Sequence record: SRR31156797_6279
Strand: one strand, 5' to 3'
Length of the DNA: 34,180 nucleotides
Below, one piece after another: positions 1,219 through 34,179 of the stretch (positions within the stretch are counted from its first letter, which is position 1; the number at the start of each line of letters is the position of its first letter). The position numbers and the translations under genes were made by a program. Under the pieces are notes generated by a model, which did not search any database, was not told the origin of the DNA, and was given only the letters and a program-made list of their open reading frames with translations.

Positions 1219-3231
1219 CTACCCCTTCCGCACTTCAACAATAGTCGTATCATCATTCTGCTCAATGCCGTTTCGCCAGTCACTGACTGCTTTGGCTAAC
1301 CGTTCTCCCCTTGATTCTGGGGTGCCGTTAAGTAGCGTTTCAAGCACCCGTTCATCCCCGAATAGATTCTTTTCGCTGTCTTCGGCTTCGGTTACTCCGT
1401 CGCTCATCATGATGCAGGATTCCCCGGGCAGCAGGATGGTTTCCGCGAGTTCATATTGCGTGTCATCCATTATGCCCAGCGGTAAACCTGTTTGGCCTTT
1501 TATTTTTCTCTTTCCTTCTGTGCCTATAATCAGCGGCGGCATATGTCCGGCATTTACCCATTGTAGCAGTCCCGAATCCGGGAAATAGCGCAGGATGAAA
1601 ATTGTTACGAAGTTGCTGTCCCTCTCAAGGAAGGGGAAAAGGTCTTTATTTGCTTCGGAAAGTAGTTCGTCAGGGCTTTTGTGTTTTGTTGCATGGGAGC
1701 GAATCTGGGTCCATGCTGAGGCCATGACCAATGCGGCAGGAAGTCCTTTGCCTGAGACATCTGCGAGATAAATTATCCATGATCCGTCTTCCAGATCGAT
1801 AATATCGTAGAAGTCTCCGCCTACGAACAGGGCAGGACTGCAATATGCGTAGAGTGAGTCTCCATTGCCCAGATTCGGGTTTTCGGGCCAGAAGTGGGAT
1901 TGGATTCGGGCTGCGGCATCAAGTTGCACTTGCAGCTTTTCCTTTTCCAGGCGCTGCTGCTCGTTCTCGGCATAAAGCAATAGTGATTTCAAGCCCAGCG
2001 TGACCAGAAAAGTACTTACAGCAAGATAGATGATTCCGCTCAGATTAAGCATGATTCCGGTGGTTACAAATAGTACTGCATTTCCGGCAGCATAACTGAT
2101 GATCAAAAGGGCAGAGGCGATGACAAATCTGCGCGGCCCAAATCGAACAGCCAGCAGGCAGATAAGTCCCACCATGACTATTGCGCTGAGCAGAACGCTC
2201 CATTGCGGCGCATTGCGAATAAACTTTTGTTGCAGGATGGTATTTACTGCGTTGGAGTGAATCGTGACCAGCGGTTCTGCGTTGGCAATAGGGGTTGGGC
2301 CGATGTCTGTGCTGCCTGAAGATGTCAGGCCTATAAAGACTGTCTTGCCCTTGATGATGTTACGTAAGTCTGCTTCAGCTTCTTTGTCGCCGGAAGCTGC
2401 AATCACGTCGTGGAATGACAACCGGGTGAAACCCTGCCCCCAGCTTCCTGCAAAGTTCACAGCCATGTGGCCTTTTCGATCCAGTGGAATATTTATGTTT
2501 CTCCCGTTTTTGTCGGCAAGTTCCAGATAATCTTCCGTCCACTTGGCATAGTTGATCTCTAGAATTTCCATAGCCGTGCGCAGATCAATGGATGGCAGTG
2601 GGGCACCGCTTAACCCGATAAGCAATGGGATACGGCGCAGGACTCCGTCAGCATCAGGGGAGGCTGAAATATGACCGATGCCCAAAGCGCTGTTAGCAAG
2701 GGCCGGCAGGGGCATGAACGTTCTCTCTGCCTGTTTAATCTCCTTAAGCGGTGGTATAGGGCTGTCCAGTAGAGATTTATTTAGGGCTGTTTTATATTCA
2801 GGAAGGGGCAGTATGACTGTTTCCGGATCGCTGACCAGACTGAATCCGGCGGGAAGCAGTACTTGGCCCTGCCGGACAGCTTGTATAAGTCGGGCATCTC
2901 CTTTTTTATTACCCTGACCGTGGAAAACAATGTCATAGACAATCAGTTTTGCATTGCAGCGGGTCAGTGTTTCAATAGTCTGCCCGTGTATTCCCCGGTC
3001 CCACGGCCATTTTCCCAGTTCTTTGAGGCTAGCGTCATCAATATTGAGCAGTACAATTTCGCTTGATGCCGGAATGTTTCCCGCAAGTCTGATTCTCATA
3101 TCGTAAAGAGTGGATTCCATACGATTGAAAAAAGTCGGGAGCAGAACCAGCGCGGAAATCAACAGTATGAAAATGAGGACCGCGATGCTCGAGACTCTGA
3201 AAATGAACTGTGACCTTGGGTACTTATTCAT
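1219..3231 (-). CDS. CHASE2 sensor domain + SpoIIE/PP2C (RsbU-like) phosphatase, membrane protein
   Basis: CHASE2 motifs IDDASL..LGKWPWDR, YDIVF, DADGVLRR, IHSNAVNTIL; three TM helices; PP2C motifs VGGDFYD, ADVSGKG, NAGHMPP, SDGVTEA, QNDDTT. Confidence 0.93.
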   Translation of the reverse strand: MNKYPRSQFIFRVSSIAVLIFILLISALVLLPTFFNRMESTLYDMRIRLAGNIPASSEIVLLNIDDASLKELGKWPWDRGIHGQTIETLTRCNAKLIVYDIVFHGQGNKKGDARLIQAVRQGQVLLPAGFSLVSDPETVILPLPEYKTALNKSLLDSPIPPLKEIKQAERTFMPLPALANSALGIGHISASPDADGVLRRIPLLIGLSGAPLPSIDLRTAMEILEINYAKWTEDYLELADKNGRNINIPLDRKGHMAVNFAGSWGQGFTRLSFHDVIAASGDKEAEADLRNIIKGKTVFIGLTSSGSTDIGPTPIANAEPLVTIHSNAVNTILQQKFIRNAPQWSVLLSAIVMVGLICLLAVRFGPRRFVIASALLIISYAAGNAVLFVTTGIMLNLSGIIYLAVSTFLVTLGLKSLLLYAENEQQRLEKEKLQVQLDAAARIQSHFWPENPNLGNGDSLYAYCSPALFVGGDFYDIIDLEDGSWIIYLADVSGKGLPAALVMASAWTQIRSHATKHKSPDELLSEANKDLFPFLERDSNFVTIFILRYFPDSGLLQWVNAGHMPPLIIGTEGKRKIKGQTGLPLGIMDDTQYELAETILLPGESCIMMSDGVTEAEDSEKNLFGDERVLETLLNGTPESRGERLAKAVSDWRNGIEQNDDTTIVEVRKG

Positions 3232-10283: not shown

Positions 10284-10997
10284 CTAGAAAGTCAGCAAGG
10301 CATTAAAACGATAAGGGGACATCGGGTAGCTCTCTAGGTTCTGATCAAAGGTCTGGACCTTCATTCCATGTTTTCGACCGTATTCATGGAACCATGCTTT
10401 AGGATAGTAAAGATGACGGTAGGGGCTGTCTTCTGCTGTCGGGTATTCCTCTCCAGTATAGATCACATTACGTCTGTAGTCTTCGCAGAGGTTCCTTTTT
10501 TCGAGGTCGGGAACATCAAGGATGAATATCTTTCCGTTGTCAGTGAGAACTCGCAGTATTTCATCCATGGCCTTTCTAGCATAGTCAAGGTCACGAAAGT
10601 AAAAGAAAACGCCGTGGGAAAAGACAGCTTCGAACATATTGTCCTCAAAACCGAGGTCTGAGGCTTCACAAGCTTTTCCTTTCAATTCAGGGATAGCGGA
10701 CATAGCCTTTTGAATCAGGGTTTTAGAATAATCAGCGCCGTAAAGTTCCGGGCCGGAATCGCGGAATGTGTAAAGCATTGCTCCGGCTCCGCAGCCTACT
10801 TCCAGAATTCTGGAAGCTTTATCTGTTTCCAATTTGGCTTTAATGTCCGCTGAAGTTTTCATCCAGTCTTCCACGGATATTGCCCCGGTTCCGGTGTCAA
10901 AACCGTCAGCCTTCATAAGGTCTTCAAGGGAATCTCCGCTTTCGGTGCCTTTGCGGGTCCAGACCTCGTGCCAATTGTTTTCAGTAGATATATCCAT
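10284..10997 (-). CDS. Class I SAM-dependent methyltransferase
   Basis: ILEVGCGAG, GADYS, FEAVFSHGVFFYF, ILRVL..NGKIFILD. Confidence 0.92.
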   Translation of the reverse strand: MDISTENNWHEVWTRKGTESGDSLEDLMKADGFDTGTGAISVEDWMKTSADIKAKLETDKASRILEVGCGAGAMLYTFRDSGPELYGADYSKTLIQKAMSAIPELKGKACEASDLGFEDNMFEAVFSHGVFFYFRDLDYARKAMDEILRVLTDNGKIFILDVPDLEKRNLCEDYRRNVIYTGEEYPTAEDSPYRHLYYPKAWFHEYGRKHGMKVQTFDQNLESYPMSPYRFNALLTF

Positions 10998-17364: not shown

Positions 17365-17916
17365 ATGGAGGAAAAAAGAACATCGAAGCAGTGTGGAGGA
17401 GTTCTTCCTTTCTTCATCGGTGTCCTTGCGAGCCTGATCGTCGGTTGGTGGGTTTTCCCGCAGGTTATTTATAGCCAGAAGACTCAGCCTATCGATTTCA
17501 GCCACAAGGTTCATGTTGAAGGTGAAGGTATGGACTGTGAGTCATGTCACATGTTTTTGGAAGACGGTTCCTTTGCAGGTCTGCCTTCCAACGAGCAGTG
17601 TGCTGAGTGTCACGAAGATGTCCTCGGTGAAACCGAAGCTGAGGAAATTTACGTGACCGAGTATCTGCAGAAGGGTGTGGAAGTACCCTGGCTGGTTTAT
17701 CAGTATCAGCCCGATAATGTTTACTTTTCGCACATGGCACACCAAGGCTTCGAGTGTACGGATTGCCATCCCGACGTAGGCAACAGCGACACGCTGCCGA
17801 CGTATTACGAAAACAGAATCAGCGGTTACAGCAAGCAGACCATGAAGATGTGGCAGTGTGAACGCTGTCATGCGGAAGTTGGTACCAGCAACGCATGTTA
17901 CGTCTGCCATAAGTAA
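17365..17916 (+). CDS. qrcA: Menaquinone reductase complex, membrane-anchored multiheme cytochrome c
   Basis: N-terminal TM, QPIDFSHKVH, five CxxCH motifs (CESCH, CAECH, CTDCH, CERCH, CYVCH); operon context. Confidence 0.93.
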   Translation: MEEKRTSKQCGGVLPFFIGVLASLIVGWWVFPQVIYSQKTQPIDFSHKVHVEGEGMDCESCHMFLEDGSFAGLPSNEQCAECHEDVLGETEAEEIYVTEYLQKGVEVPWLVYQYQPDNVYFSHMAHQGFECTDCHPDVGNSDTLPTYYENRISGYSKQTMKMWQCERCHAEVGTSNACYVCHK

Positions 17917-17929
17917 GTGAGGGACTGCA

Positions 17930-19999
17930 ATGGGTATTGATCGCAGAACTTTTATTCAATTGGTAACAGGTGGTGTTGTTGGTTCACTCTTCACCCCTGT
18001 AATTTGGAAATCTCTGGATGATGCAGCTATCTGGTCGCAGAACTGGTCTTGGATTCCCAGACTGAAATACGGTGCAATCACTGAACAGGCTTCTGTTGCC
18101 AAATTTGGTGCAGCTCCCTGTGCGGAGATTGTTAAGTCCGTAGGTGGAAGTCCTTATCTCTCCAGAGGAAACGCAGAAAACGAAATGAGCAAGGGCGGTG
18201 TTGATCCTGTCAGCGCCAGTGGTCCTCAGCTCATGTACAGTCCTTCCCGTATCAACGGTCCCATGAAAAAGACCGCGGAAGGCAAATACGAGTCCATCTC
18301 CTGGGAAGATGCTGAAAAGCTCCTCTCCGAGAAACTCGCTGCAGTTAAAGGACAGAAAGGCAAACTCGCTGTTGTCTCCGGTGATGTAACCGGTACCGCA
18401 ACTGAGGTTCTGTCCGGTTTCGCCTCTGAAATGGGCGCGGACTGCTACCTGATGCCCTCTGAAGAGCAGGGCGCAGCCGTGGCTCTGGCGAGCATGGGCG
18501 GAAAAGGCCAGATCGGTTATGATCTGGAAAATTCCGACTTCGTGCTTTTCGTAGGTGCGGATGCTATGGATTCATGGGGTTCGGTTGTGAGAAACCAGTG
18601 TGTTTACTCCGAAAGCCGTCCCACCGGTGAAGAAATTAAGACTACTTATGTCTACGCCGGTCCTTTCCAGAACAGCACAGCGGCCGCTGCAGATAAGTGG
18701 GTTCCGGTTGCTCCCGGCACCGGCGCTATCTTCTGCCTCGGTCTTGCTTACCATATGCTCAAGGCCGGAGCTTCCGCTTCCGCCTCCGACTTCGCCGACT
18801 TTAAGACTCTGGTAATGTCCAGATTCTCTCCCGATAAAGTGGAGAAAGCCACTGGCGTATCCGGAGTGGAAATGGCTGCTATTGCCAAGCGCATTATGAA
18901 ATCTTCCACTCCCGTTGTTGTTGCAGGCTCCGAGTTCGCTCAGGGTGCAGGCGCAGCTGACGTGATTGCCGCTGCTGCAGTTAACATGCTGCTCGGTCGC
19001 GTCAACAAAGACGGCGGTATGAAGATTCTCCCTGAACTGCCCACAGCTATTGAAGCTGCTGCAGGTCGTTCCGAATTGGCTGCCAAAGACTTTATCGGCT
19101 ACCTTGCAGGTATCGCAGCAGGCAAAGTTGCAGCTCCTGAAGTAATGATGGCTTATGAAGCCAACCCTGTTTTCGCACTGCCCCAGAACACAGCTCTGGC
19201 ACCGGCGTTTGAAAAAGCAGGTTTCCTCGTAAGCTTCAGCACCTATATGGATGAAACAGCTTCCAAGGCTGACCTGATTATGCCCAACCCCACCAGCTAT
19301 GAGCGTTTTGAAGATGCACAGACCCCTTACGGTGTCGGCTCCGCAATGCTCGCAGCCAGTGCTCCTGTTGCAGAGCCTCTCTACAACAGCAAGCCCACTG
19401 TGGACGTTGTCCTTGGCGTGGCTTCCGGTCTGGGTATTGACCTTGGTTACGAATCCTCAGAAGCCGTTTATCAGGCTAAAGCCGAAAAAGCAGGCGCTGA
19501 CTGGGATTCCCTTGTAGAAGGCGCTGCTTACGTTTCCGATTCCACTGAATCCGGTTCCATCAAGTTTGCAGCATCTGTCCTTTCCAAGGCTGTGGCCATG
19601 CCTAAGGGCGGAGAAATCGCTCTTGCTCCTTACTCCAAGCTCATCTTTGGTACTCCCACTGTGGCTATTCCGCCGCTGAATGTGGTTGCTATCAGTAAGT
19701 TCGAGCTGCTGGGTAAAGACCTCATGGTTCAGGTTAACTCTAAGACTGCCAAGAAACTCGGCGTGTCTGAAGGTTCCAAGGTCAAGCTTGCCGGAGCAGG
19801 CGGAGAGTGCGCTGTAAGAATCCATATTAATGAAGGCGTAATGAATGATGTTATCGCCGCACCTCTTGGATTCGGTCACACCGCATGGGATGCTTACTCC
19901 AGCGGTAAAGGCGAAAACATCTCCAAACTTCTCACCGTTGGTACTGAGTCCGGCACCGGTTTATCCGTGTGGACCAGTTCTTTCGTGAGTATCGCCTAA
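17930..19999 (+). CDS. qrcB: Qrc molybdopterin-oxidoreductase-like subunit
   Basis: Tat motif DRRTFI, SLDDAAIWSQNWSWIP, ISWEDA, STYMDETA..ADLIMP; no N-terminal FeS cysteine cluster. Confidence 0.93.
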   Translation: MGIDRRTFIQLVTGGVVGSLFTPVIWKSLDDAAIWSQNWSWIPRLKYGAITEQASVAKFGAAPCAEIVKSVGGSPYLSRGNAENEMSKGGVDPVSASGPQLMYSPSRINGPMKKTAEGKYESISWEDAEKLLSEKLAAVKGQKGKLAVVSGDVTGTATEVLSGFASEMGADCYLMPSEEQGAAVALASMGGKGQIGYDLENSDFVLFVGADAMDSWGSVVRNQCVYSESRPTGEEIKTTYVYAGPFQNSTAAAADKWVPVAPGTGAIFCLGLAYHMLKAGASASASDFADFKTLVMSRFSPDKVEKATGVSGVEMAAIAKRIMKSSTPVVVAGSEFAQGAGAADVIAAAAVNMLLGRVNKDGGMKILPELPTAIEAAAGRSELAAKDFIGYLAGIAAGKVAAPEVMMAYEANPVFALPQNTALAPAFEKAGFLVSFSTYMDETASKADLIMPNPTSYERFEDAQTPYGVGSAMLAASAPVAEPLYNSKPTVDVVLGVASGLGIDLGYESSEAVYQAKAEKAGADWDSLVEGAAYVSDSTESGSIKFAASVLSKAVAMPKGGEIALAPYSKLIFGTPTVAIPPLNVVAISKFELLGKDLMVQVNSKTAKKLGVSEGSKVKLAGAGGECAVRIHINEGVMNDVIAAPLGFGHTAWDAYSSGKGENISKLLTVGTESGTGLSVWTSSFVSIA

Positions 20000-20022
20000 A
20001 TTAAAGTCAGGGGATTCACGTT

Positions 20023-20781
20023 ATGCAACAATTGGAATTTGATACTAAATGGACCATGGTAGTAGATGTCGACAAGTGTACCGGTTGCGGTGCTTGTATG
20101 GTGTCCTGCCAGGCTGAAAATAACATAGCTCCCATGGAAGAAGGGTCCAACAAGCTTAAGACCCTCACCTGGATGCTTGTGTACGAACTCAACAACGGTA
20201 AGGAATTCCCCAACAGGGAAGTTGCCTACCTGCCCAGACCCTGCATGCAGTGCGGACACCCTGCCTGCGTTCCCGTCTGTCCCGTAGTTGCTACTACTAA
20301 GGATGAAGAAGGCGGTATCGTCAGTCAGATTTATCCCCGTTGCATCGGTTGCAGATACTGTATGGCAGCTTGCCCTTACCACGCTCGCTACTTTGGCTGG
20401 CTCGACCCGGTATGGCCCGGTGGTATGGATAAGGCTCTGTCTCCCTCAACCTCTACCCGTCCTCGCGGTGTTGTTGAGAAATGTAACTTCTGCCACTCCA
20501 GACTGCTAGATGCACGTCAGCGTGCTCGTAACGAAGGTCTGGATCCCAACAAGCTCCCCGACGGCTGGTATCAGCCTGCTTGTCTGGAAGCATGTCCCAC
20601 TGGGGCAATCTCCTTCGGTGATGCCAAGAACCCTGAGCACAAAGTTCATGAACTGATCAAGAGCCCCAATGCTTTCCGCATTCTGGAATCTATCGGCATG
20701 GATCCTCAGGTTTACTACATCAGCCGTCGTGACTGGGTCCGTGAGCAGAGTGATAACCACGTCGCTGAAGACAAGCACTAG
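20023..20781 (+). CDS. qrcC: Qrc iron-sulfur subunit (NrfC/DmsB-like)
   Basis: CTGCGACMVSC, CMQCGHPACVPVCP, CIGCRYCMAACPY, KCNFC..PACLEACP. Confidence 0.95.
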   Translation: MQQLEFDTKWTMVVDVDKCTGCGACMVSCQAENNIAPMEEGSNKLKTLTWMLVYELNNGKEFPNREVAYLPRPCMQCGHPACVPVCPVVATTKDEEGGIVSQIYPRCIGCRYCMAACPYHARYFGWLDPVWPGGMDKALSPSTSTRPRGVVEKCNFCHSRLLDARQRARNEGLDPNKLPDGWYQPACLEACPTGAISFGDAKNPEHKVHELIKSPNAFRILESIGMDPQVYYISRRDWVREQSDNHVAEDKH

Positions 20782-20795
20782 GAGGGAGGTTTACC

Positions 20796-22028
20796 ATGGA
20801 TAGCAATCTCTTCCCCGAAGGCGTAAAACGCTGCGGACTTCCCAAGTTCCTGCTGTGGATGGCATTTCCTGCCGCTATTCTGCTCTGGGGAGCTTACGCT
20901 GCCGGACAGATTTTCTACTACGGCATCGGCGTAACCGGCCTTGATAACTACTTCGGGTTCGGCCTCTGGATTACTTTTGACCTTGCGGTTATTGCTCTTG
21001 GTGCTGGTGCATTCTTCACCGGTTTCCTCAAGTATATCCTCAAGATCGATCAACTTAAAAATATCATCAACCTTGCAGTAGTCTTAGGATTTCTGTGCTA
21101 CTCCGGCGCCATGCTCATTCTGACCATGGATATCGGGCAGCCCATCCGCGCATGGTTCGGTTACTGGCACCCCAACGTGCATTCCATGCTCACAGAAGTT
21201 ATCTTCTGTATTACCTGTTACTGCACCGTTCTGATTATTGAATTCATTCCGCTGGTTCTCGAGCAGAAGCAGCTGAACAAGATTCCTTTCCTGCACCATT
21301 TTGCCCATCATCTGCACGTGAATATGGCATTGTTCGCAGGTATCGGAACCTTCCTGTCCACCTTTCACCAGGGTTCTCTCGGTGGTATGTACGGCGTTAT
21401 GTTTGGTCGTCCATACGCTTTTCGTGAAGGTTTCTTCATCTGGCCCTGGACTTTCTTCCTCTTCGTTCTCTCTGCTGTGGGTTCCGGTCCTGTTTTCACA
21501 GTTCTGGTTTGTACCCTCATCGAGAAAATGACCGGTAGGAAGTTGGTGGAATACAAAGTGAAAGCCCTGATGGGTAAAATCGCCGGTACCATGCTCTGCG
21601 TGTACATGTTCTTCAAGATCATCGACACTTGGGCTTGGGCTGTTGGTTACCTGCCTTCCGTCGGACTGACCTTCGACCAGATGTTCTACGGTAACGTCTA
21701 CGGACAGTGGCTGCTCTGGACTGAGCTCGTACTTTGCGGCATCGTTCCCGCAATCATGCTGATCACTCCGTCCATCAGGAACAACCCCAGCCTGCTGTAC
21801 ACTGCAGCGATTCTGGACTGCATCGGCGTATCCATCAACCGTTACGTCTTCACCGTTCAGACCATCGCTATCCCGGTTATGCCTTTTGATAACTGGGAAA
21901 TTTATGTACCCAACTGGGCAGAATGGGCAACCTCGCTCATGATCTGCGCATACGGTGCTCTGGTGCTCAGCCTCTGCTATCGCTATCTGCCTATGTTCCC
22001 TCAGGAAGTTAAGCTGAATAAGAAGTAG
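20796..22028 (+). CDS. qrcD: Qrc integral membrane subunit (NrfD/PsrC family)
   Basis: FGLWITFDL, DIGQPIR, HSMLTEV, STFHQGSLGG, NRYV; multiple TM helices. Confidence 0.95.
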   Translation: MDSNLFPEGVKRCGLPKFLLWMAFPAAILLWGAYAAGQIFYYGIGVTGLDNYFGFGLWITFDLAVIALGAGAFFTGFLKYILKIDQLKNIINLAVVLGFLCYSGAMLILTMDIGQPIRAWFGYWHPNVHSMLTEVIFCITCYCTVLIIEFIPLVLEQKQLNKIPFLHHFAHHLHVNMALFAGIGTFLSTFHQGSLGGMYGVMFGRPYAFREGFFIWPWTFFLFVLSAVGSGPVFTVLVCTLIEKMTGRKLVEYKVKALMGKIAGTMLCVYMFFKIIDTWAWAVGYLPSVGLTFDQMFYGNVYGQWLLWTELVLCGIVPAIMLITPSIRNNPSLLYTAAILDCIGVSINRYVFTVQTIAIPVMPFDNWEIYVPNWAEWATSLMICAYGALVLSLCYRYLPMFPQEVKLNKK

Positions 22029-26083: not shown

Positions 26084-26533
26084 ATGGTTTTGGTAAATAA
26101 TCCTGAGGCACAGGCTGACGGCGGCGTCACTTCTTCTTTTTCACTGAAATCAGATATTTCTGAACTCAGTGTCCTTGCTGAAAAAATTGAAAATTTCGGC
26201 AGTGAGCATGGTGTTTCTGATAAGACTGTGTTTGAACTCAATCTCGTGCTTGATGAGCTTTTTACGAACCTTGTCAGCTACGGTTGTCAGTCAGACAGGC
26301 ATAAGTTTGATATTATCATGGAATTGAAAGATGGAGTTCTCACCATCTGGATTGAGGATGACGGTAAGGAATTCAATCCTCTTGATGCTCCCGAACCGGA
26401 TGTGGGCTGCAAGTGTGAAGAGCGTAAAGTTGGTGGATTGGGAATCCATTTTATGCGCAAGATGATGGACAGCATTGAATATGCATGGAAAGATGGCAGG
26501 AATAAATTGACGTTGACCAAAAATATTCAATAG
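26084..26533 (+). CDS. RsbW/SpoIIAB-like anti-sigma factor / Ser kinase (HATPase_c)
   Basis: LVLDELFTNLVSYG, IEDDGKEFNP, GGLGIHFMRKMMD, GRNKL. Confidence 0.92.
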   Translation: MVLVNNPEAQADGGVTSSFSLKSDISELSVLAEKIENFGSEHGVSDKTVFELNLVLDELFTNLVSYGCQSDRHKFDIIMELKDGVLTIWIEDDGKEFNPLDAPEPDVGCKCEERKVGGLGIHFMRKMMDSIEYAWKDGRNKLTLTKNIQ

Positions 26534-26636
26534 CTTTATATATCTATTAGAAAAGTAGCCCGCTGGGCGGATTTTTATATTTAACAGATTGGCAATGCCG
26601 CGTACCAGTCGGTAAATTGGGAAAACGGAGGAAACG

Positions 26637-26975
26637 ATGGGTCTTGAAGTTGGTGAAATCAAAAATGACGGTATTATTACCTTTAAGCTTAAAGGGCGTC
26701 TTGATTCAAATACATCCAATGATTTTGAAGAAAGGCTCCTGAGCCTGATTCAGGATGGTGAAAGCAAGATCATTCTGGATTTTGAAAACCTTGAGTATAT
26801 TTCCAGTGCCGGGTTGAGAGTGCTGCTCAAAGCCGCCAGAGAACTCAAAGGCGGAGATGGTAAGCTCATTCTCTGTTCCCTCAAGGATTATATCAGGGAA
26901 GTTTTTGACCTTTCCGGCTTTGTCTCCTTCCTGCCTATCTATAACACCATGGATGAATGTTTGGGCGCTTTCTAG
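26637..26975 (+). CDS. STAS-domain anti-sigma antagonist (RsbV/SpoIIAA-like)
   Basis: LKGRLDS, LEYISSAGLRVLL (phospho-Ser motif), VFDLSGF. Confidence 0.94.
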   Translation: MGLEVGEIKNDGIITFKLKGRLDSNTSNDFEERLLSLIQDGESKIILDFENLEYISSAGLRVLLKAARELKGGDGKLILCSLKDYIREVFDLSGFVSFLPIYNTMDECLGAF

Positions 26976-27131
26976 ACATTTTTAAATAATCGGGCCATAT
27001 TCAGGTCTTCTCTAATGTCTTTAATGCTTCCTGTCTGCTTTTTAGCGGACAGGAAGTTTGTTTTTTGAAACTGTGATAGTTTATTGCTAGAATAGCCAGT
27101 GCGCTTTCTTACATACACCGGAGGGTATAAA

Positions 27132-28475
27132 ATGAGCGGTATATTCACATCTCTTGCAGTAATGATGTCTCCGAGGGGACTTGAGGTCGCAGGGCACGGT
27201 GCCGGATTGGGCGGGGCTGCTTTTCTGGGAGTCCTTGTTCTGGCAGCTCTTTCTGCTATCTGCACCGCGCGCAGCATGGATAAACTTTCATCCGGGGAAC
27301 TGCGGGCCACCCCTGTTGACCGCGTCGCATTCGGGTTTCTTGATGCAGCCCGTTTTTTTACCCTGACCGTGCTGGCTGTCTCATGGTTGGGGCTTGCCGG
27401 TTATGCGGTTAATGAAATTTTCATTACATCTTTTCCTAATCTGGGTGCATCATTTACCATTCTTGCCCTAGCTGTTTGGGCCTGTTTTCTTTCAAAGAAA
27501 TATGCTGGAGACCTTTTCGGCGGAGCTTTGACTTTGGCCTTTCTATTTTTTGTTTATGTGGTGGTGATGGTCAACCAGCCTTGGACCGGAGGAATGGGCT
27601 ATCCTACCGAACTTCCGGTGATGTTTGCCCCGCTGCTGCCGACTGCTTTTGCCGAAGCAGGGCCTATGGGCTGGATGCAATTGATTTTTCTGGGAGTGCT
27701 TGCCTTTGTCGGTTTTGATCTTCCACTGGTTTTTGAAAATAAAGGTTCAAGGGCAGTTCCGGCTATTTTGCTGATTCTTGCTGCTTTCGGTTTTTTCGTC
27801 TGGGCAGCTTTGCTGGTTACGACTCCTGAGGAATTGCTTAGTTCAACAGTTCCTCACCTTGCGGTTGCCGCACATGTGCTTGAAGGTAAGGGGCTTTTGC
27901 TCATGGGAGGTACAATCGTATTCGCAACTTTTGCCGGTATCTGTGCGTTGTTTCGTCTTTTCGGACATAAGGTGCGCGGGGTTCTTGCTGATGATTACTC
28001 CAGCTATGCTGTCGGAGGGGCTGCAGTATCTCTGGGCGCAATCATTGCTATCATGCTGGCTAAAGGCTGGGCCGGAAAGGAAGAGCTGGAAGCTCTTATT
28101 TCCGCAGGTCTTTGTTTCTGGTTCGGATCTTACGCACTGATTGACCTGCTCGGTATTGTTGCCATGCGCCGCGCTAGACGGTTTTACCTGCCCAGATTTT
28201 TGACCTTGGGGGTGCACGTTATTGCTGCAGCCGTATGTTGCCTGCATATCGAATTTCTTAACTATTTTCTCTACACCATTGGTTGTTTGACTGTTGCGGG
28301 TATTGCCCTTGGATTTACCATGAAGGAATATTGCGACTATCCTCCACTGGAAGAAGTTGAGGCTGAAGATGAGGGCGAAGGTGATTCTGAATCTGAAGAA
28401 GGCGAAGAAGTTCATAGTGATCCGGTTGAGGATGGTTCTGAAGATGGAGAGTTGAACATTGTGAGTTATAAATAG
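27132..28475 (+). CDS. Polytopic membrane protein, possibly a divergent APC-like permease, with an acidic C-terminal tail
   Basis: About 12 hydrophobic segments; ATG after GGAGG; Asp/Glu-rich tail. Confidence 0.7.
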   Translation: MSGIFTSLAVMMSPRGLEVAGHGAGLGGAAFLGVLVLAALSAICTARSMDKLSSGELRATPVDRVAFGFLDAARFFTLTVLAVSWLGLAGYAVNEIFITSFPNLGASFTILALAVWACFLSKKYAGDLFGGALTLAFLFFVYVVVMVNQPWTGGMGYPTELPVMFAPLLPTAFAEAGPMGWMQLIFLGVLAFVGFDLPLVFENKGSRAVPAILLILAAFGFFVWAALLVTTPEELLSSTVPHLAVAAHVLEGKGLLLMGGTIVFATFAGICALFRLFGHKVRGVLADDYSSYAVGGAAVSLGAIIAIMLAKGWAGKEELEALISAGLCFWFGSYALIDLLGIVAMRRARRFYLPRFLTLGVHVIAAAVCCLHIEFLNYFLYTIGCLTVAGIALGFTMKEYCDYPPLEEVEAEDEGEGDSESEEGEEVHSDPVEDGSEDGELNIVSYK

Positions 28476-28581
28476 AGAGTTTTTTGCCCGTTTTTTCTTG
28501 TCCTCCGGCTTTGATTTGGTATTATTAAAGTGAACCCTAAATTTGTTCATTTATTAATATACAAAATATGTGGAGGTAATG

Positions 28582-28998
28582 ATGGGCAACCGTTTAATAT
28601 TGCTTCTCTTTGCTTCAATTCTTGCCGTGTTAGCTAGTCTTGCGGTCTTCCCGCTTGCGGCAGATGCTGAAGATGTACCCCGGGTTTCCGGTGATTATCT
28701 GGAACGCAAACTAGGTACGGAAGGGCTGGTGATAGTTGACTCACGTAGTGGTTCTGATTGGCGGGGAAGTTCGTCCAAGATAAAGGGGGCGATCCGCGGC
28801 AAGGCCGGAAAGGAAAGGGAATGGTCCGCAGACCTGCCCAAGGGTTCCGAGATAGTCATCTACTGTGCTTGACCCAACGAATACACAAGCTCCCGTGTGG
28901 GGCGGAAGTTGAAGAAGATGGGTTTTACAAATGTTAACGCGCTTCTGGGCGGTTGGCATCAATGGCACAGATCAGAGTTTCCGGTTGAACCTAAGTAA
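28582..28998 (+). CDS. Exported rhodanese-domain selenoprotein, in-frame TGA at 28870 read as Sec
   Basis: IVDSR..KIKGAIR..IVIYCA-TGA-PNEYTSSRVGRKLKKMGFTNVNALLGGWHQW..FPVEPK-TAA: the rhodanese fold continues in frame to a TAA just before the terminator; signal peptide LAADA; RBS GGAGG. Confidence 0.88.
28873..28911 (+). promoter_or_regulatory. Candidate bacterial SECIS element
   Basis: Hairpin GC(T)CCC-GTGT-GGGGC at 28889-28903 with bulged U and G-first loop; lower CAAC/GTTG pairing; directly 3' of the UGA. Confidence 0.6.
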
Positions 28999-29005
28999 AA
29001 AAATG

Positions 29006-29040
29006 AAAAGGGGGATTGCTCAGGCAATCCCCCTTTTTTT
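29006..29040. terminator. Bidirectional terminator
   Basis: AAAAGGGGGATTGC-TCAG-GCAATCCCCCTTTTTTT between convergent genes. Confidence 0.9.
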
Positions 29041-31543
29041 ATTCCGGTCTATCCATTTCAATCTTATTTAAAGAGCGGTGCTTTCGCAGGGCCGCCGACC
29101 TGAAACATTTGCTGATAAGTTTGCGTTTTTCCTTGAGTGCCTCGCGCTGGGCTGCGATCTGAGCAGCTTCATCACCTTTAGGCTTGTACTTGGTTTTGAC
29201 TCCGCGGAAGGCAACCTTGATTTTTTTGCTTTGAAATTTTTGATCAAGTTCATCCACAATGTCGGATTCCGTGGGGAATTTATCCTCAAAGTGACTGACC
29301 CAGAAAAGAAGTTCAAAGTCCAAGCCTAATATTCCAAAGCGTTTGAATAAAATGTTCGGAGCCGGGTCTTTGAGTACATTGGGGTGCTTTTTGACTACCT
29401 TGAGCATGATTTTTTTGGCCTTCTTAACCTTTGTGCCGGGAACAAGAGTGACCGGAATCGTTACCCTGATGCGGGTGTCCTGATAGTTGAGGTTGACAAT
29501 TTCGCCTTTCAGGAAGCTGGAGTTGGGGATGATGACCATACTGTTGTCCAGAGCCTTGAGGGTGGTGTTACGGATAGAAACATCAATCACCGTTCCGATG
29601 ATTTTTTTGTGCTGCAGGGTGTCTCCTTTTTTAATGGAACCACCGAAGAGGATGATCAGCCCACTGACAAAGTTACTGACAATATCCTTCATACCGAAAC
29701 CAATACCGATGGAAAGGCCGCTGGCGATCCAGGTCAGTGCGGACATGGGAATACCCAGCAGAAAGAACGAGGCCAGCAGAAAGACCACCCAGACAATGTA
29801 GGACCCAATGGTGGACAGGGTATGAGCCAGTGCCGATTCAATGCGTTGTCCATTGATTGAAGTATTATTGACAAAGGACTTGAGCCAGAAAAGAGCCAGC
29901 CGTGCGGCGAAGAAAAGAATTAGAATGTAGAAAAGATTTTTCACCGAAATATCTGCTCCGGCAATATTCATATCCATGTGCCGAAATACAAAGCGGGCAA
30001 AGGGAACACCGCCCATGTAGGCAGTCGCCCAGCCGATGAACATAAAGATTATTACCGAAACCGAGAGCGGATAGAAAAGCTGGACCATCTGGTTGTGGTG
30101 CTGTGCCTCGCGTAGTCCTTGCTCAAATTTCTTTTGTTCGTCCTCGTCAAGCTCTTGATCATCGGGAAGCTGGTATTCTGGCTGAGGAAGATCTGTGATC
30201 AGGATAGTTTTCAGGGCTGTACAGATTTTCATGGTCACCAGAAAGAGGAACCATATCTGGGTCAGCATCATTGCCTGTGTGCCGAAACCCAGCAGGGTGA
30301 AAAGAGCTGATCCGGAAAGGACAACTCTATTGGCCTTGGATGTTGAGCGGGTTATCTGAAGGGTGTATCTGTTGCGGTTGACGTGCAGGGCTGCAAGACC
30401 TGCGACACTGAGTACGAACCAGACTACGGACAAACATTCTGCGGGAAGGGTCAGCATATGCATGATATCCCCGGCGGTCATCAGACTCCAGAGGATGAAC
30501 ATGGGGGTGTAAATTAGCGGTGCTGGCTGAACTTTTTCCCGGGCCCAGAGAAAATTGCGGGTACAGATGATGGCCCCTAAGGTTATGGCTTCGGTCCAGA
30601 GTAACCCTGTTATCTGATTGGCGGTAAACAGCGTGAATACACGGGCAAACAGAATTGCTGTACCTAATGAGATTAGGAATAGTCCGTTGTTGTAGAAGGA
30701 GAGTTTATGGTTGCTGAACATGGGGCGGCGGAGCATTCTTTTCACCAATGTGCGCAGAATCAGCCAAAACACGATGGTTATGCCGCTCATGATAATCAAG
30801 AAGTTGTCCCATTCAACCCAGACAATGAGAGGGTGGTAGAATTTGGTGTAGCTTTCCCGCCACTCTTCAAAAGCATAGCCGATATCGTTCCATGCCTGCG
30901 GGAAGAAAAGGATTAGATTGGGTTCAAAATAGAAGCTTTTTAAGGTCTGGGCATAAAATTTATGGGTGACTTCATGGTCCTCGCCCATGGAATCCATTAA
31001 ATTATCCGATTTGAGGAGGGCGGCATCAATTGATTTTTTTAAAGTAGCCGCCTCATCACGGACACGGAGATATTTTCCTCTTGTTGAGGTTAGTTGCTGT
31101 TTTAGTTGCGGATCGGAAATTTTAGTTTTGAAATGAATTTCATTTATGACATCAAAACCCTGTTTGATCTTCTTGAGTCTGTTCTTCTCTATGAGCAGGT
31201 CTGATTTTGCCAGCTGGATATAGGCCCGGACATCATCAAGCTGCATAATTACCGTGCGGTAGGACCATGGTGTCTGCTTGGCCATTCCGCGCAGCATTTT
31301 TAATTGGTCCAGCCGGACTTGTGCTGTGTGTAGCCTTGCATCGTATTTTTTGATCATAGCCGGAATATGCTGTTTAAGATCTTTTACAGCCTGGGCCTGA
31401 CGACTAATATCGGCATCAAGTGTATCGACCATGCTGAGCAAAGTTTGCGTGGCTGTTTCGGCCTGTGATTTCGTGGCAGAGGAGAAAGAAATGAGTAAAA
31501 TTAAAAGAATCAGGATCAATCCTTTTTGCGTCTTTGAGGTCAT
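29039..31543 (-). CDS. Large MscS-family mechanosensitive channel (MscK-like architecture)
   Basis: Signal peptide, coiled-coil periplasmic region, many TMs; GLSIGIGFGMKDIVSNFVSGLIILF, IKKGD, ISIRNT, IIPNS, HPNVLKDPAP; ATG 31543 after GGAG. Confidence 0.92.
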   Translation of the reverse strand: MTSKTQKGLILILLILLISFSSATKSQAETATQTLLSMVDTLDADISRQAQAVKDLKQHIPAMIKKYDARLHTAQVRLDQLKMLRGMAKQTPWSYRTVIMQLDDVRAYIQLAKSDLLIEKNRLKKIKQGFDVINEIHFKTKISDPQLKQQLTSTRGKYLRVRDEAATLKKSIDAALLKSDNLMDSMGEDHEVTHKFYAQTLKSFYFEPNLILFFPQAWNDIGYAFEEWRESYTKFYHPLIVWVEWDNFLIIMSGITIVFWLILRTLVKRMLRRPMFSNHKLSFYNNGLFLISLGTAILFARVFTLFTANQITGLLWTEAITLGAIICTRNFLWAREKVQPAPLIYTPMFILWSLMTAGDIMHMLTLPAECLSVVWFVLSVAGLAALHVNRNRYTLQITRSTSKANRVVLSGSALFTLLGFGTQAMMLTQIWFLFLVTMKICTALKTILITDLPQPEYQLPDDQELDEDEQKKFEQGLREAQHHNQMVQLFYPLSVSVIIFMFIGWATAYMGGVPFARFVFRHMDMNIAGADISVKNLFYILILFFAARLALFWLKSFVNNTSINGQRIESALAHTLSTIGSYIVWVVFLLASFFLLGIPMSALTWIASGLSIGIGFGMKDIVSNFVSGLIILFGGSIKKGDTLQHKKIIGTVIDVSIRNTTLKALDNSMVIIPNSSFLKGEIVNLNYQDTRIRVTIPVTLVPGTKVKKAKKIMLKVVKKHPNVLKDPAPNILFKRFGILGLDFELLFWVSHFEDKFPTESDIVDELDQKFQSKKIKVAFRGVKTKYKPKGDEAAQIAAQREALKEKRKLISKCFRSAALRKHRSLNKIEMDRPE

Positions 31544-31824
31544 GTTTTTCTCCAAGGCTTGACAAGCCTGCTATTTTTCCGGTTAATTATCTGCATCCGC
31601 TGACTGCTTTTCAGTTCGTTTCCTCACAGTCCTGCCTGTGATCCTCTTTTCTAGAAAATTTTCCGGTACAGACCGGATCGTGTCCGGTAGAAAATTCTAT
31701 CCACAAATCACAAACGTGTATTTTGCAGTCGGCAATTCTTATTCTTCAATGTACACTGCTGGTTGTACTAAATGTATCTGATAAATAAAACATTTTTTAC
31801 AGCCTATTATCAATCGGGAGAATT

Positions 31825-33416: not shown

Positions 33417-33449
33417 AAGGGCGGACACATGAGTGTCCGCCCTTTTTTT
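33417..33449. terminator. Terminator after aroC, between convergent genes
   Basis: AAGGGCGGACAC-ATGA-GTGTCCGCCCTTTTTTT. Confidence 0.88.
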
Positions 33450-34179
33450 ATTTCTTAGCGATTATATATCCGAAGCTGGTCCAGCGTCCGTTGTCTACAG
33501 CAAGGGTTTTCGGATCGTCGTCCGGGGCCTTTTTGCAGAATGGATCATGCTTGGCGAATTCCATCCACCAGTCCCATGCATCAGGAGCATAGCCGCTCTC
33601 GATGATTTCAAATCCGGCCCGTTTAAGGTCTGCAACAGTACTGTCGACAGTTCTGAAGCATTCCTTCCACGGAAATTCCGGTTGTGAAACATAAGGTTCC
33701 AAGTCCTCGGGCAACGGTACGTCAAGGTGCATTGGTTCTCCCAATGCGAAGATGCCGTCCGGTCTGAGTACCCGGTGAATTTCTTGAAGGCATTCAATGT
33801 AACCTTCTTCGCCGCTAATTCCGCGTACCATCTCCAACGCTGTTGTTGAGGTGGCAAAGTCGAATGATTCAGAGGCCAGGTGTGTTTCCGGCACTCCGAT
33901 TTTCTGGGTTAAAACCAGATTTTTAACACCCCATTCTTGGGCATTGTACCGCGCATGCTCAACCATTGGTCTGCCGTCCATACGATCATCCCAAGGATCA
34001 ATGCCAAATACGGATACCCCGTATTCCCTGGCAAGGAAACAGGCTTGAACTCCACGGTTGCAGCCCACATCCAGCAGGCGTGCACCAGACCGGATACCCA
34101 TTTTCTGGGCCATGAAGTCACTGAGTTTCAATCCACCGGGACCGCTGCATTGGGCGTAGATGGTGTCCAGATCGGTATA
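33448..34179 (-). CDS. Class I SAM-dependent methyltransferase, 5' end beyond the window
   Basis: LLDVGCNRG, GIDPW, SFDFATS, HRVLRPDG; the frame stays open upstream of 34131 (YTDLDTIYAQCSGPGGLKL) to the window edge. Confidence 0.9.
   Translation of the reverse strand, partial: YTDLDTIYAQCSGPGGLKLSDFMAQKMGIRSGARLLDVGCNRGVQACFLAREYGVSVFGIDPWDDRMDGRPMVEHARYNAQEWGVKNLVLTQKIGVPETHLASESFDFATSTTALEMVRGISGEEGYIECLQEIHRVLRPDGIFALGEPMHLDVPLPEDLEPYVSQPEFPWKECFRTVDSTVADLKRAGFEIIESGYAPDAWDWWMEFAKHDPFCKKAPDDDPKTLAVDNGRWTSFGYIIAKK

Follow-up and report, generated by a model that had tools for sequence, protein, structure and literature searches.

We analysed a stretch of DNA of 34,180 nucleotides from sequence record SRR31156797_6279, which is called the window below, and in it a gene on the plus strand at 28582-28998 that encodes a rhodanese-related protein and carries an in-frame TGA in the active-site loop. 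The open reading frame (ORF) opens with a GTG at 28570, the likelier start being the ATG at 28582, and it halts at the TGA at 28870-28872, right after the residues I-V-I-Y-C-A. Past this codon the same frame runs on for 41 sense codons to the TAA at 28996-28998. When the TGA is read as selenocysteine (Sec, U), the product is a protein of 138 residues with U as residue 97. The ATG start fits the residues M-G-N-R-L, with which close homologs begin in the alignment, and a Shine-Dalgarno-like GGAGG can be read from the sequence at 28572-28576 (plus strand), 5 nt 5' of it. The codons TGT GCT TGA at 28864-28872 (plus strand) specify Cys95-Ala96-Sec97, the C-A-U of the active-site loop that is invariant in the alignment. 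All of this bears out the initial annotation, a note made from the sequence alone, which had described an ORF of 100 amino acids (aa) stopping at a TGA within a rhodanese active-site loop, a continuation of 41 codons to a TAA, and a readthrough product of 138 aa.

A known family of rhodanese-related selenoproteins

Profile searches with the readthrough product returned an established family. NCBIfam NF041203 ('rhodanese_LYCAU, rhodanese-related (seleno)protein') matched at 147.9 bits, above its curated cut-off of 115 (E 1.1e-43), and the alignment places residues 15-138 of the protein on profile positions 3-126 of 126, i.e., on 124 of the 126 positions. The family motif, [L/I/V/T]-Y-C-A-U, is present in the window as I-Y-C-A-U. 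Pfam Rhodanese (PF00581) matched residues 38-130, with the TGA inside the match, at 43.1 bits (cut-off 22.2, E 5.9e-11). An AlphaFold2 model computed with 30 homologs as input showed the alpha/beta rhodanese fold, with a mean predicted local distance difference test score (pLDDT) of 91.4. The top Foldseek matches of this model were all rhodaneses (3tp9, 3nhv, 6mxv, 1gmx and others), aligned over 105-109 columns that make up the whole mature domain, the part behind the TGA included; the Foldseek probability was 1.00 for many rhodaneses, and the target-normalised template modelling score reached 0.70-0.86 against the single-domain ones. The typical rhodanese C-terminus which the initial annotation had recognised past the TGA is therefore confirmed by the two profiles and by the fold, all of which span the TGA. 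On the basis of NF041203, Pfam Rhodanese and the AlphaFold2 model, the full coding sequence of the rhodanese selenoprotein is 28582-28998 on the plus strand (138 residues including Sec97, and the TAA). We thus conclude that 28582-28998 is one gene, for a single-domain rhodanese of 138 residues, and that the apparent gene of 100 codons is its truncated reading.

The same truncation recurs in the databases. The 14 homologs found at E <= 1e-10 are without exception stumps, which measure 89-111 aa and extend over 57-70% of the query. Those named by a source are all called 'hypothetical protein'. The remark of the initial annotation that the ORF caller had missed the gene thus applies to its close homologs as well. 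The locus shows how a real gene can be cut short by a standard ORF caller, and the remedy, NF041203, already exists.

It follows from the family assignment that the window gene belongs, as an ordinary member, to the curated NF041203 family and to the published 'CxU' form of rhodanese, and that it was already known; the suspicion voiced at the outset, that rhodanese-related selenoproteins had been predicted before and that the family might not be new, was correct. Members of the family share with the window protein the motif [ILV]-Y-C-A-U, a single in-frame TGA and about 126 matched positions, and they also have in common with the window gene a hydrophobic N-terminus and a downstream hairpin. 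The only difference is a trivial one, an Ile in place of Leu ahead of Y-C-A-U. The closest homolog, 89% identical, lies in a metagenome-assembled genome (MAG) of Maridesulfovibrio, and orthologs in four related genomes are 86-90% identical to the window protein. Two reviews (PMC13188914, PMC9312934), whose reference lists give Zhang and Gladyshev (2005, Bioinformatics 21:2580), credit these authors with the first report of the CxU family. The parts of these reviews at hand enter the family as 'CxU' and as predicted only, and in the one from 2022 (PMC9312934) the entry stands under 'Predicted'. The gene itself is thus no surprise, and the interest that remains is in the function of the family, which has been on selenoprotein lists since 2005 with predicted status. 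A literature search for this function returned no functional study; the term 'NF041203' was named in one review of 2026 and 'LYCAU' gave an unrelated match.

Two other rhodaneses help to delimit the family. By sequence, the closest solved structure is 6mxv, a rhodanese-like family protein of Francisella tularensis, to which the family profile aligns at 119.6 bits (E 7.9e-34) without gaps over the full domain length in each of the two domains that it has in tandem, with a Foldseek E of about 5e-8. It differs from the window protein in this tandem arrangement, in that each domain has one Cys, placed in a C-G-x-G-F-R-S loop, and in having neither Sec nor a second chalcogen residue; its function is uncharacterised too. 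Rhodaneses with Sec in or near the active-site loop also include TsoB, a rhodanese/DsbD fusion-like selenoprotein (NF045694, UxxxxU), and other forms entered in the available part of PMC13188914. With NF045694, whose cut-off is 805, the window protein reaches only 14.1 bits, and motif, domain architecture and number of Sec residues are different.

Conservation of the TGA, the downstream frame and the hairpin

We searched NF041203 in 401 genomes of Desulfovibrionia, the class of the Maridesulfovibrio homolog genome, at E <= 1e-20. The survey gave 54 matches in 49 of the 401 genomes, and 52 of the 54 contain an in-frame TGA, two of them carrying two. The two matches without TGA are a C-T-C form, which is a true member (124.7 bits), and one with His, which scores below the NF041203 cut-off. 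A Cys form was also found in betaproteobacteria, where 24 loci read C-A-C-P-N-E-Y with a TGY codon at the Sec column; at 76.7 bits it is below the cut-off and outside the equivalog. These Cys forms (L003 2296-3318, plus strand, and L004-L026) are the C-terminal domain of DedA/VTT-family membrane proteins in MAGs of Burkholderiales type. A Cys homolog at the Sec position, a general mark of selenoproteins, thus exists, and alternation of Sec and Cys at an invariant active-site position is a standard selenoprotein signature. The search for homologs with Cys or TGA at this position, proposed in the initial annotation, thereby turned up both. Trp, which it had named as a residue that would speak against Sec, was never seen at the Sec column; the homologs have Sec or Cys there, apart from the one sub-cut-off match with His.

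To assess the frame behind the TGA, 30 sequences that contain it were aligned, whose identity to the window protein ranges from 33 to 90%. All 30 have Y94, C95, A96 and U97, with the TGA at the same column throughout, and nine residues past it (E100, S103, L110, L121, G123, G124, W125, W128 and P134) are invariant as well. Pairwise differences per site at the first, second and third codon positions amount to 0.297, 0.295 and 0.541 in the 40 codons after the TGA, and to 0.434, 0.387 and 0.633 in the 40 codons before it. The coding pattern after the TGA is thus at least as strong as before it, and the downstream frame is, judging from these substitutions, under protein selection. An unconserved downstream frame, named beforehand as another outcome that would count against the gene, is contradicted by the nine invariant residues and by the variation at third positions.

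Bacterial insertion of Sec also calls for a hairpin just 3' of the UGA (selenocysteine insertion sequence, SECIS), and a candidate was found with RNAalifold in 60 nt from the TGA of the same 30 sequences. The SECIS-like hairpin lies at 28889-28903 on the plus strand and starts 16 nt past the UGA, with the stem formed by 28889-28893 and 28899-28903 (alignment columns 20-24 with 30-34) and the loop by 28894-28898. The conserved fold is a plain stem of 5 bp with a 5-nt loop, C-G-K-G-N. Of the 150 cells of this stem, 149 are paired. Compensatory changes occur in two of its pairs: at one, 27 sequences have C-G and 3 have U-A, and at the other, 18 have G-C and 11 have U-G, with the pair broken in the remaining sequence. 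The covariation score was above that of 500 of 500 shuffles and of all six slid registers, in a test that included a two-pair lower extension of the stem. This extension (columns 17-18 with 36-37) was paired in just 9 and 17 of the 30 sequences and was dropped. Paired amino-acid changes, S..G versus A..A, track the base pairs. In the 24 Cys-form homologs, a GC-rich set that forms other hairpins, these columns show pairing in 66 of 120 cells. A conserved, covarying stem-loop just 3' of the UGA, as expected of a SECIS, is thus present, though it has a short stem that coincides with conserved codons. The initial annotation had placed a hairpin with a bulged U and a G-first loop about 16-30 nt downstream; its position holds and the hairpin is conserved, but the bulged U and the G-first loop do not belong to the conserved fold. 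They describe the window's own minimum-energy fold, an alternative one in which the loop is G-first and the stem has an internal C/A mismatch. An Rfam scan of the window at the gathering threshold gave two tRNA matches only and no SECIS family.

As a proxy for the host we used related genomes, namely the two in which homologs were first found and five further close relatives, and tRNA-Sec and selB were present in seven of the seven tested. In the first two relatives all scores are above the cut-offs, with 82.5 and 80.1 bits for tRNA-Sec and 389.7 and 374.7 bits for selB; selA (615.8 and 607.6 bits) and selD (338.8 and 329.6 bits), tested in these two, were above the cut-offs in both. By their gene content the relatives can decode Sec. 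The selD genes of the two genomes (G001:C2:33036-33959 and G002:C1:941762-942682) have one in-frame TGA each and would encode a Sec-containing selenophosphate synthetase. Within the window tRNA-Sec was found neither by Rfam nor by ARAGORN, which reported a single tRNA-Ser(UGA).

Active site, genomic partners and proposed chemistry

The residue at the canonical catalytic position of the rhodanese loop was approached in three ways. In the HMMER alignment to 6mxv, which is free of gaps, U97 falls on the catalytic Cys. In those to YnjE and NoxA-3, with a two-residue gap, it is C95 that takes the catalytic position, and the secondary structure of the AlphaFold2 model (strand 90-94, loop 95-100, helix from 101) fits C95 as the first residue of the six-residue loop that lies between the central strand and a helix. 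In either register the active site holds two chalcogens two residues apart. One relative, the cytochrome fusion L085 (minus strand), reads TGA-GCC-TGA, i.e., U-A-U, with Sec at both sites. Such a U-A-U form was reported earlier for Olavius symbionts, according to the part of PMC1976440 consulted.

Ten of the 54 NF041203 matches lie in open frames of 524-580 aa. Nine of the ten consist of an N-terminal LYCAU-type rhodanese and a domain with eight CxxCH motifs; the count covers the nine readable frames and leaves out the tenth (L058, at a contig start, with 2 TGA). These rhodanese-octahaem fusions with TGA, recognised by their CxxCH motifs, are L073 1339-3036 (plus strand), L080-L084, L085 (minus strand), L086 and L087. 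In the one that was scanned, L073, the best matches were Pfam Multi-haem_cyto and a partial hydrazine dehydrogenase. Haem c is attached in the periplasm, so fusions to c-type cytochromes must be periplasmic. A periplasmic location of the rhodanese domain can be inferred because relatives are fused to such cytochromes, and the predicted fusions tie this domain to periplasmic electron transfer. They recall Desulfurivibrio, whose secreted rhodaneses are assumed to feed polysulfide reductase, as stated in the portion of PMC12142623 at hand. A functional analogy is also offered by MccSep/ExtKL of Geobacter sulfurreducens, which the accessible text of PMC13510729 presents as a periplasmic pentahaem polysulfide reductase with an essential Sec coupled to c-type haems. 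It differs in its unrelated fold and in having Sec in the cytochrome and not in a rhodanese domain; the window gene is without a haem domain.

The N-terminus of the window protein is in line with this location. Residues 1-29 (28582-28668, plus strand) form a probable Sec-type signal peptide, with a basic residue, a hydrophobic core (predicted helix 2-25) and A-D-A ahead of E30, and the N-terminus is hydrophobic in 30 of 30 homologs, three of them lipoprotein-like. The protein is thus probably exported by the Sec pathway and would act in the periplasm; the initial annotation, too, had called it exported and periplasmic.

Directly 5' of the selenoprotein gene lies a gene for a polytopic membrane protein (27099-28475, plus strand) which resembles amino-acid/APC permeases and is a conserved neighbour. 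Pfam and NCBIfam searches of this protein gave no family match; a language-model feature look-up placed it with a score of 0.97 in a cluster of which 35% of the members carry AA_permease_2, to be taken as a lead only. By tblastn, 17 of 31 loci had the membrane protein 5' of the selenoprotein gene, at identities that fell to 26-29%, and the downstream MscK-like gene was present in only 11 of these loci. A profile built on six such membrane proteins was then searched in the same 401 genomes (>= 220 bits). Of its 30 matches, 26 precede an NF041203 match by 77-492 nt and share its strand, and the other four are in genomes without an NF041203 match. Seen from the other side, 23 of the 49 selenoprotein genomes are without this adjacent permease-like gene. 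At eight loci an ORF of about 360 aa lies upstream instead; its N-terminus was read in six, and a family search confirmed purM in two. Relatives of the membrane protein, of about 400-460 aa, occur at L027, L028, L049, L057, L059-L063, L065-L070 and L075-L077. In the text passages and listings of the papers searched (supplements excluded), neither the pairing with a permease nor the octahaem fusion was described, and these two context facts seem to be unreported.

Since the two chalcogens are two residues apart, we propose a chemistry of the pair. SelB with Sec-tRNA(Sec) would bind the hairpin at 28889-28903, 16 nt past the UGA, as in established bacterial Sec decoding, and the ribosome would insert selenocysteine at the UGA instead of terminating. 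In the exported protein the selenolate and the neighbouring thiol might work together on sulfane sulfur or selenium, e.g., polysulfide, S0 or thiosulfate. One chalcogen would take up the atom as a perselenosulfide or persulfide, in the manner of a rhodanese, and the other would resolve the adduct through a Se-S bond, so that sulfur is passed on or freed as sulfide. Re-reduction of the pair could come from periplasmic c-type cytochromes. We offer this mechanism tentatively, with the balance of chances tipped somewhat against it. A possible model of function is Sud (PDB 1qxn), the periplasmic polysulfide-sulfur transferase of Wolinella succinogenes. Like the window protein, Sud is an exported single-domain rhodanese of an anaerobic sulfur-respiring bacterium, and the family profile matches 1qxn with an E of 1.5e-7. 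Sud has one catalytic Cys and no selenium, in place of which the window protein has the Cys-x-Sec pair, and the kinship in sequence is distant; the window protein falls outside the Sud family but may work like Sud.

That the gene is a Sec-decoded rhodanese of the NF041203 family, whatever its chemistry, we regard as very probable. The simplest objection is that the TGA is a genuine stop, due to a nonsense mutation, a sequencing error or the decay of a pseudogene, which would leave a fragment of about 96 residues or nothing. This is how gene callers read the locus and how the stumps in the databases came to be recorded, and the window sequence at 28865-28935, folded alone, is no better than its shuffles (z = -0.41). 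A stump, however, would be short of four elements of the rhodanese fold, namely two helices and two strands, and the TGA stands in the same column in 52 of the 54 matches, across 49 genomes and at identities down to 33%. The conservation of the TGA, the Cys codon at the same site in homologs, the invariant downstream residues and the coding-type variation therefore effectively rule out that the stop is real or that it arose by nonsense mutation or sequencing error, and we give this reading next to no credence. It is likewise highly improbable that the TGA is read through without Sec, by a near-cognate tRNA that inserts Cys or Trp or by some other recoding, with the hairpin as a by-product of conserved codons. 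Such a reading would draw on the shortness of the hairpin, whose 5 bp overlap the conserved codons S-S/A-R-V-G/A so that its conservation is partly driven by the protein, and on the predicted status of the family. It is opposed by the presence of tRNA-Sec and selB in all seven related genomes, by the compensatory stem changes and the S..G versus A..A changes that follow the base pairs, by the poor pairing of the Cys forms at these columns, and by the alternation of Sec and Cys at an invariant site. The behaviour of the isolated fold and the short, codon-bound hairpin nevertheless weigh against Sec decoding, together with three further points: the evidence for selA, selB, selC and selD rests on the genomes of relatives and not on the host's own, the search of sequencing runs listed no RNA sequencing run with the locus, its only full match being perhaps the source sample, and the passages at hand of PMC13188914 and PMC9312934 enter the family as predicted only. 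Against the proposed chemistry stands the disagreement of alignments and model over whether C95 or U97 takes the canonical catalytic position.

The rival to the pair chemistry accepts the same gene and the same Sec decoding and assigns it to import: the exported Cys-x-Sec rhodanese would, in the periplasm, capture or activate a compound of sulfur or selenium, such as thiosulfate, selenite or a further chalcogen species, and hand it to the permease-like protein encoded upstream. What speaks for import is the genomic pairing, with 26 of the 30 strong membrane-protein matches placed directly 5' on the same strand, and its persistence at 26-29% identity of the membrane protein, where the MscK-like neighbour is gone; the likeness of this protein to APC/amino-acid permeases and the fusion of the betaproteobacterial Cys forms to a DedA/VTT membrane domain point the same way. 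Yet nearly half of the selenoprotein genomes (the 23 of 49) manage without the adjacent permease, with the eight ORFs of about 360 aa, purM in the two tested, among the loci concerned; a promoter-like site separates the two genes in the window; the permease is without a family assignment or a known substrate; and the cytochrome fusions favour redox chemistry over transport. We consider import rather unlikely on this evidence. We prefer the pair chemistry to it. A more far-reaching and doubtful idea is that the Cys-x-Sec rhodanese might be the substrate-handling part of an undescribed periplasmic redox system for sulfur or selenium, either fused to an octahaem domain or paired with the permease-like protein. 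If this were true, the fusions, which resemble HAO/hydrazine dehydrogenase and of which one is U-x-U, would be a new multihaem selenoenzyme for the turnover of polysulfide, thiosulfate or selenium oxyanions, and the free-standing form with its permease-like protein, as in the window, would be a module for chalcogen capture and import, or export. Three handles on function are now available, namely the two chalcogen positions, which are both invariant and can both be Sec, the octahaem fusions and the permease-like neighbour, and they make the question of function testable in a sulfate reducer that is cultivable and non-pathogenic.

Other features of the window

The selenoprotein gene is flanked by predicted transcription signals. 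A promoter-like site (28498-28525, plus strand; TTGTCC, a spacer of 16 nt and TG-TATTAT) lies in the 106-nt gap 5' of the gene and matches the consensus at 9 of 12 positions only. Past the TAA there is a strong, GC-rich hairpin of 14 bp at 29006-29037 with T/A runs on both sides, and it is readable on both strands: the prediction flagged the minus strand, and the T run of the plus strand was seen in the sequence. It is likely a bidirectional terminator, shared with the convergent MscK-like gene at 29039-31555 (minus strand).

A complete qrcABCD menaquinone reductase operon occupies 17365-22028 (plus strand), with all four subunits above the NCBIfam cut-offs. This operon and the Maridesulfovibrio origin of the closest homolog indicate that the host is a sulfate reducer of Desulfovibrionaceae type. 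Just 5' of the permease gene, 26084-26975 (plus strand) encodes an anti-sigma-factor-like kinase (HATPase_c_2) and an antagonist with a STAS domain. Together with the gene at 1219-3231 (minus strand), whose product has a SpoIIE/RssB-like phosphatase domain, these two belong to a partner-switching module. Two methyltransferase genes, at 10284-10997 and 33448-34131 (both on the minus strand), matched methyltransferase-domain selenoprotein families at about 28-31 bits, far below the cut-offs, and no in-frame TGA was seen in them.

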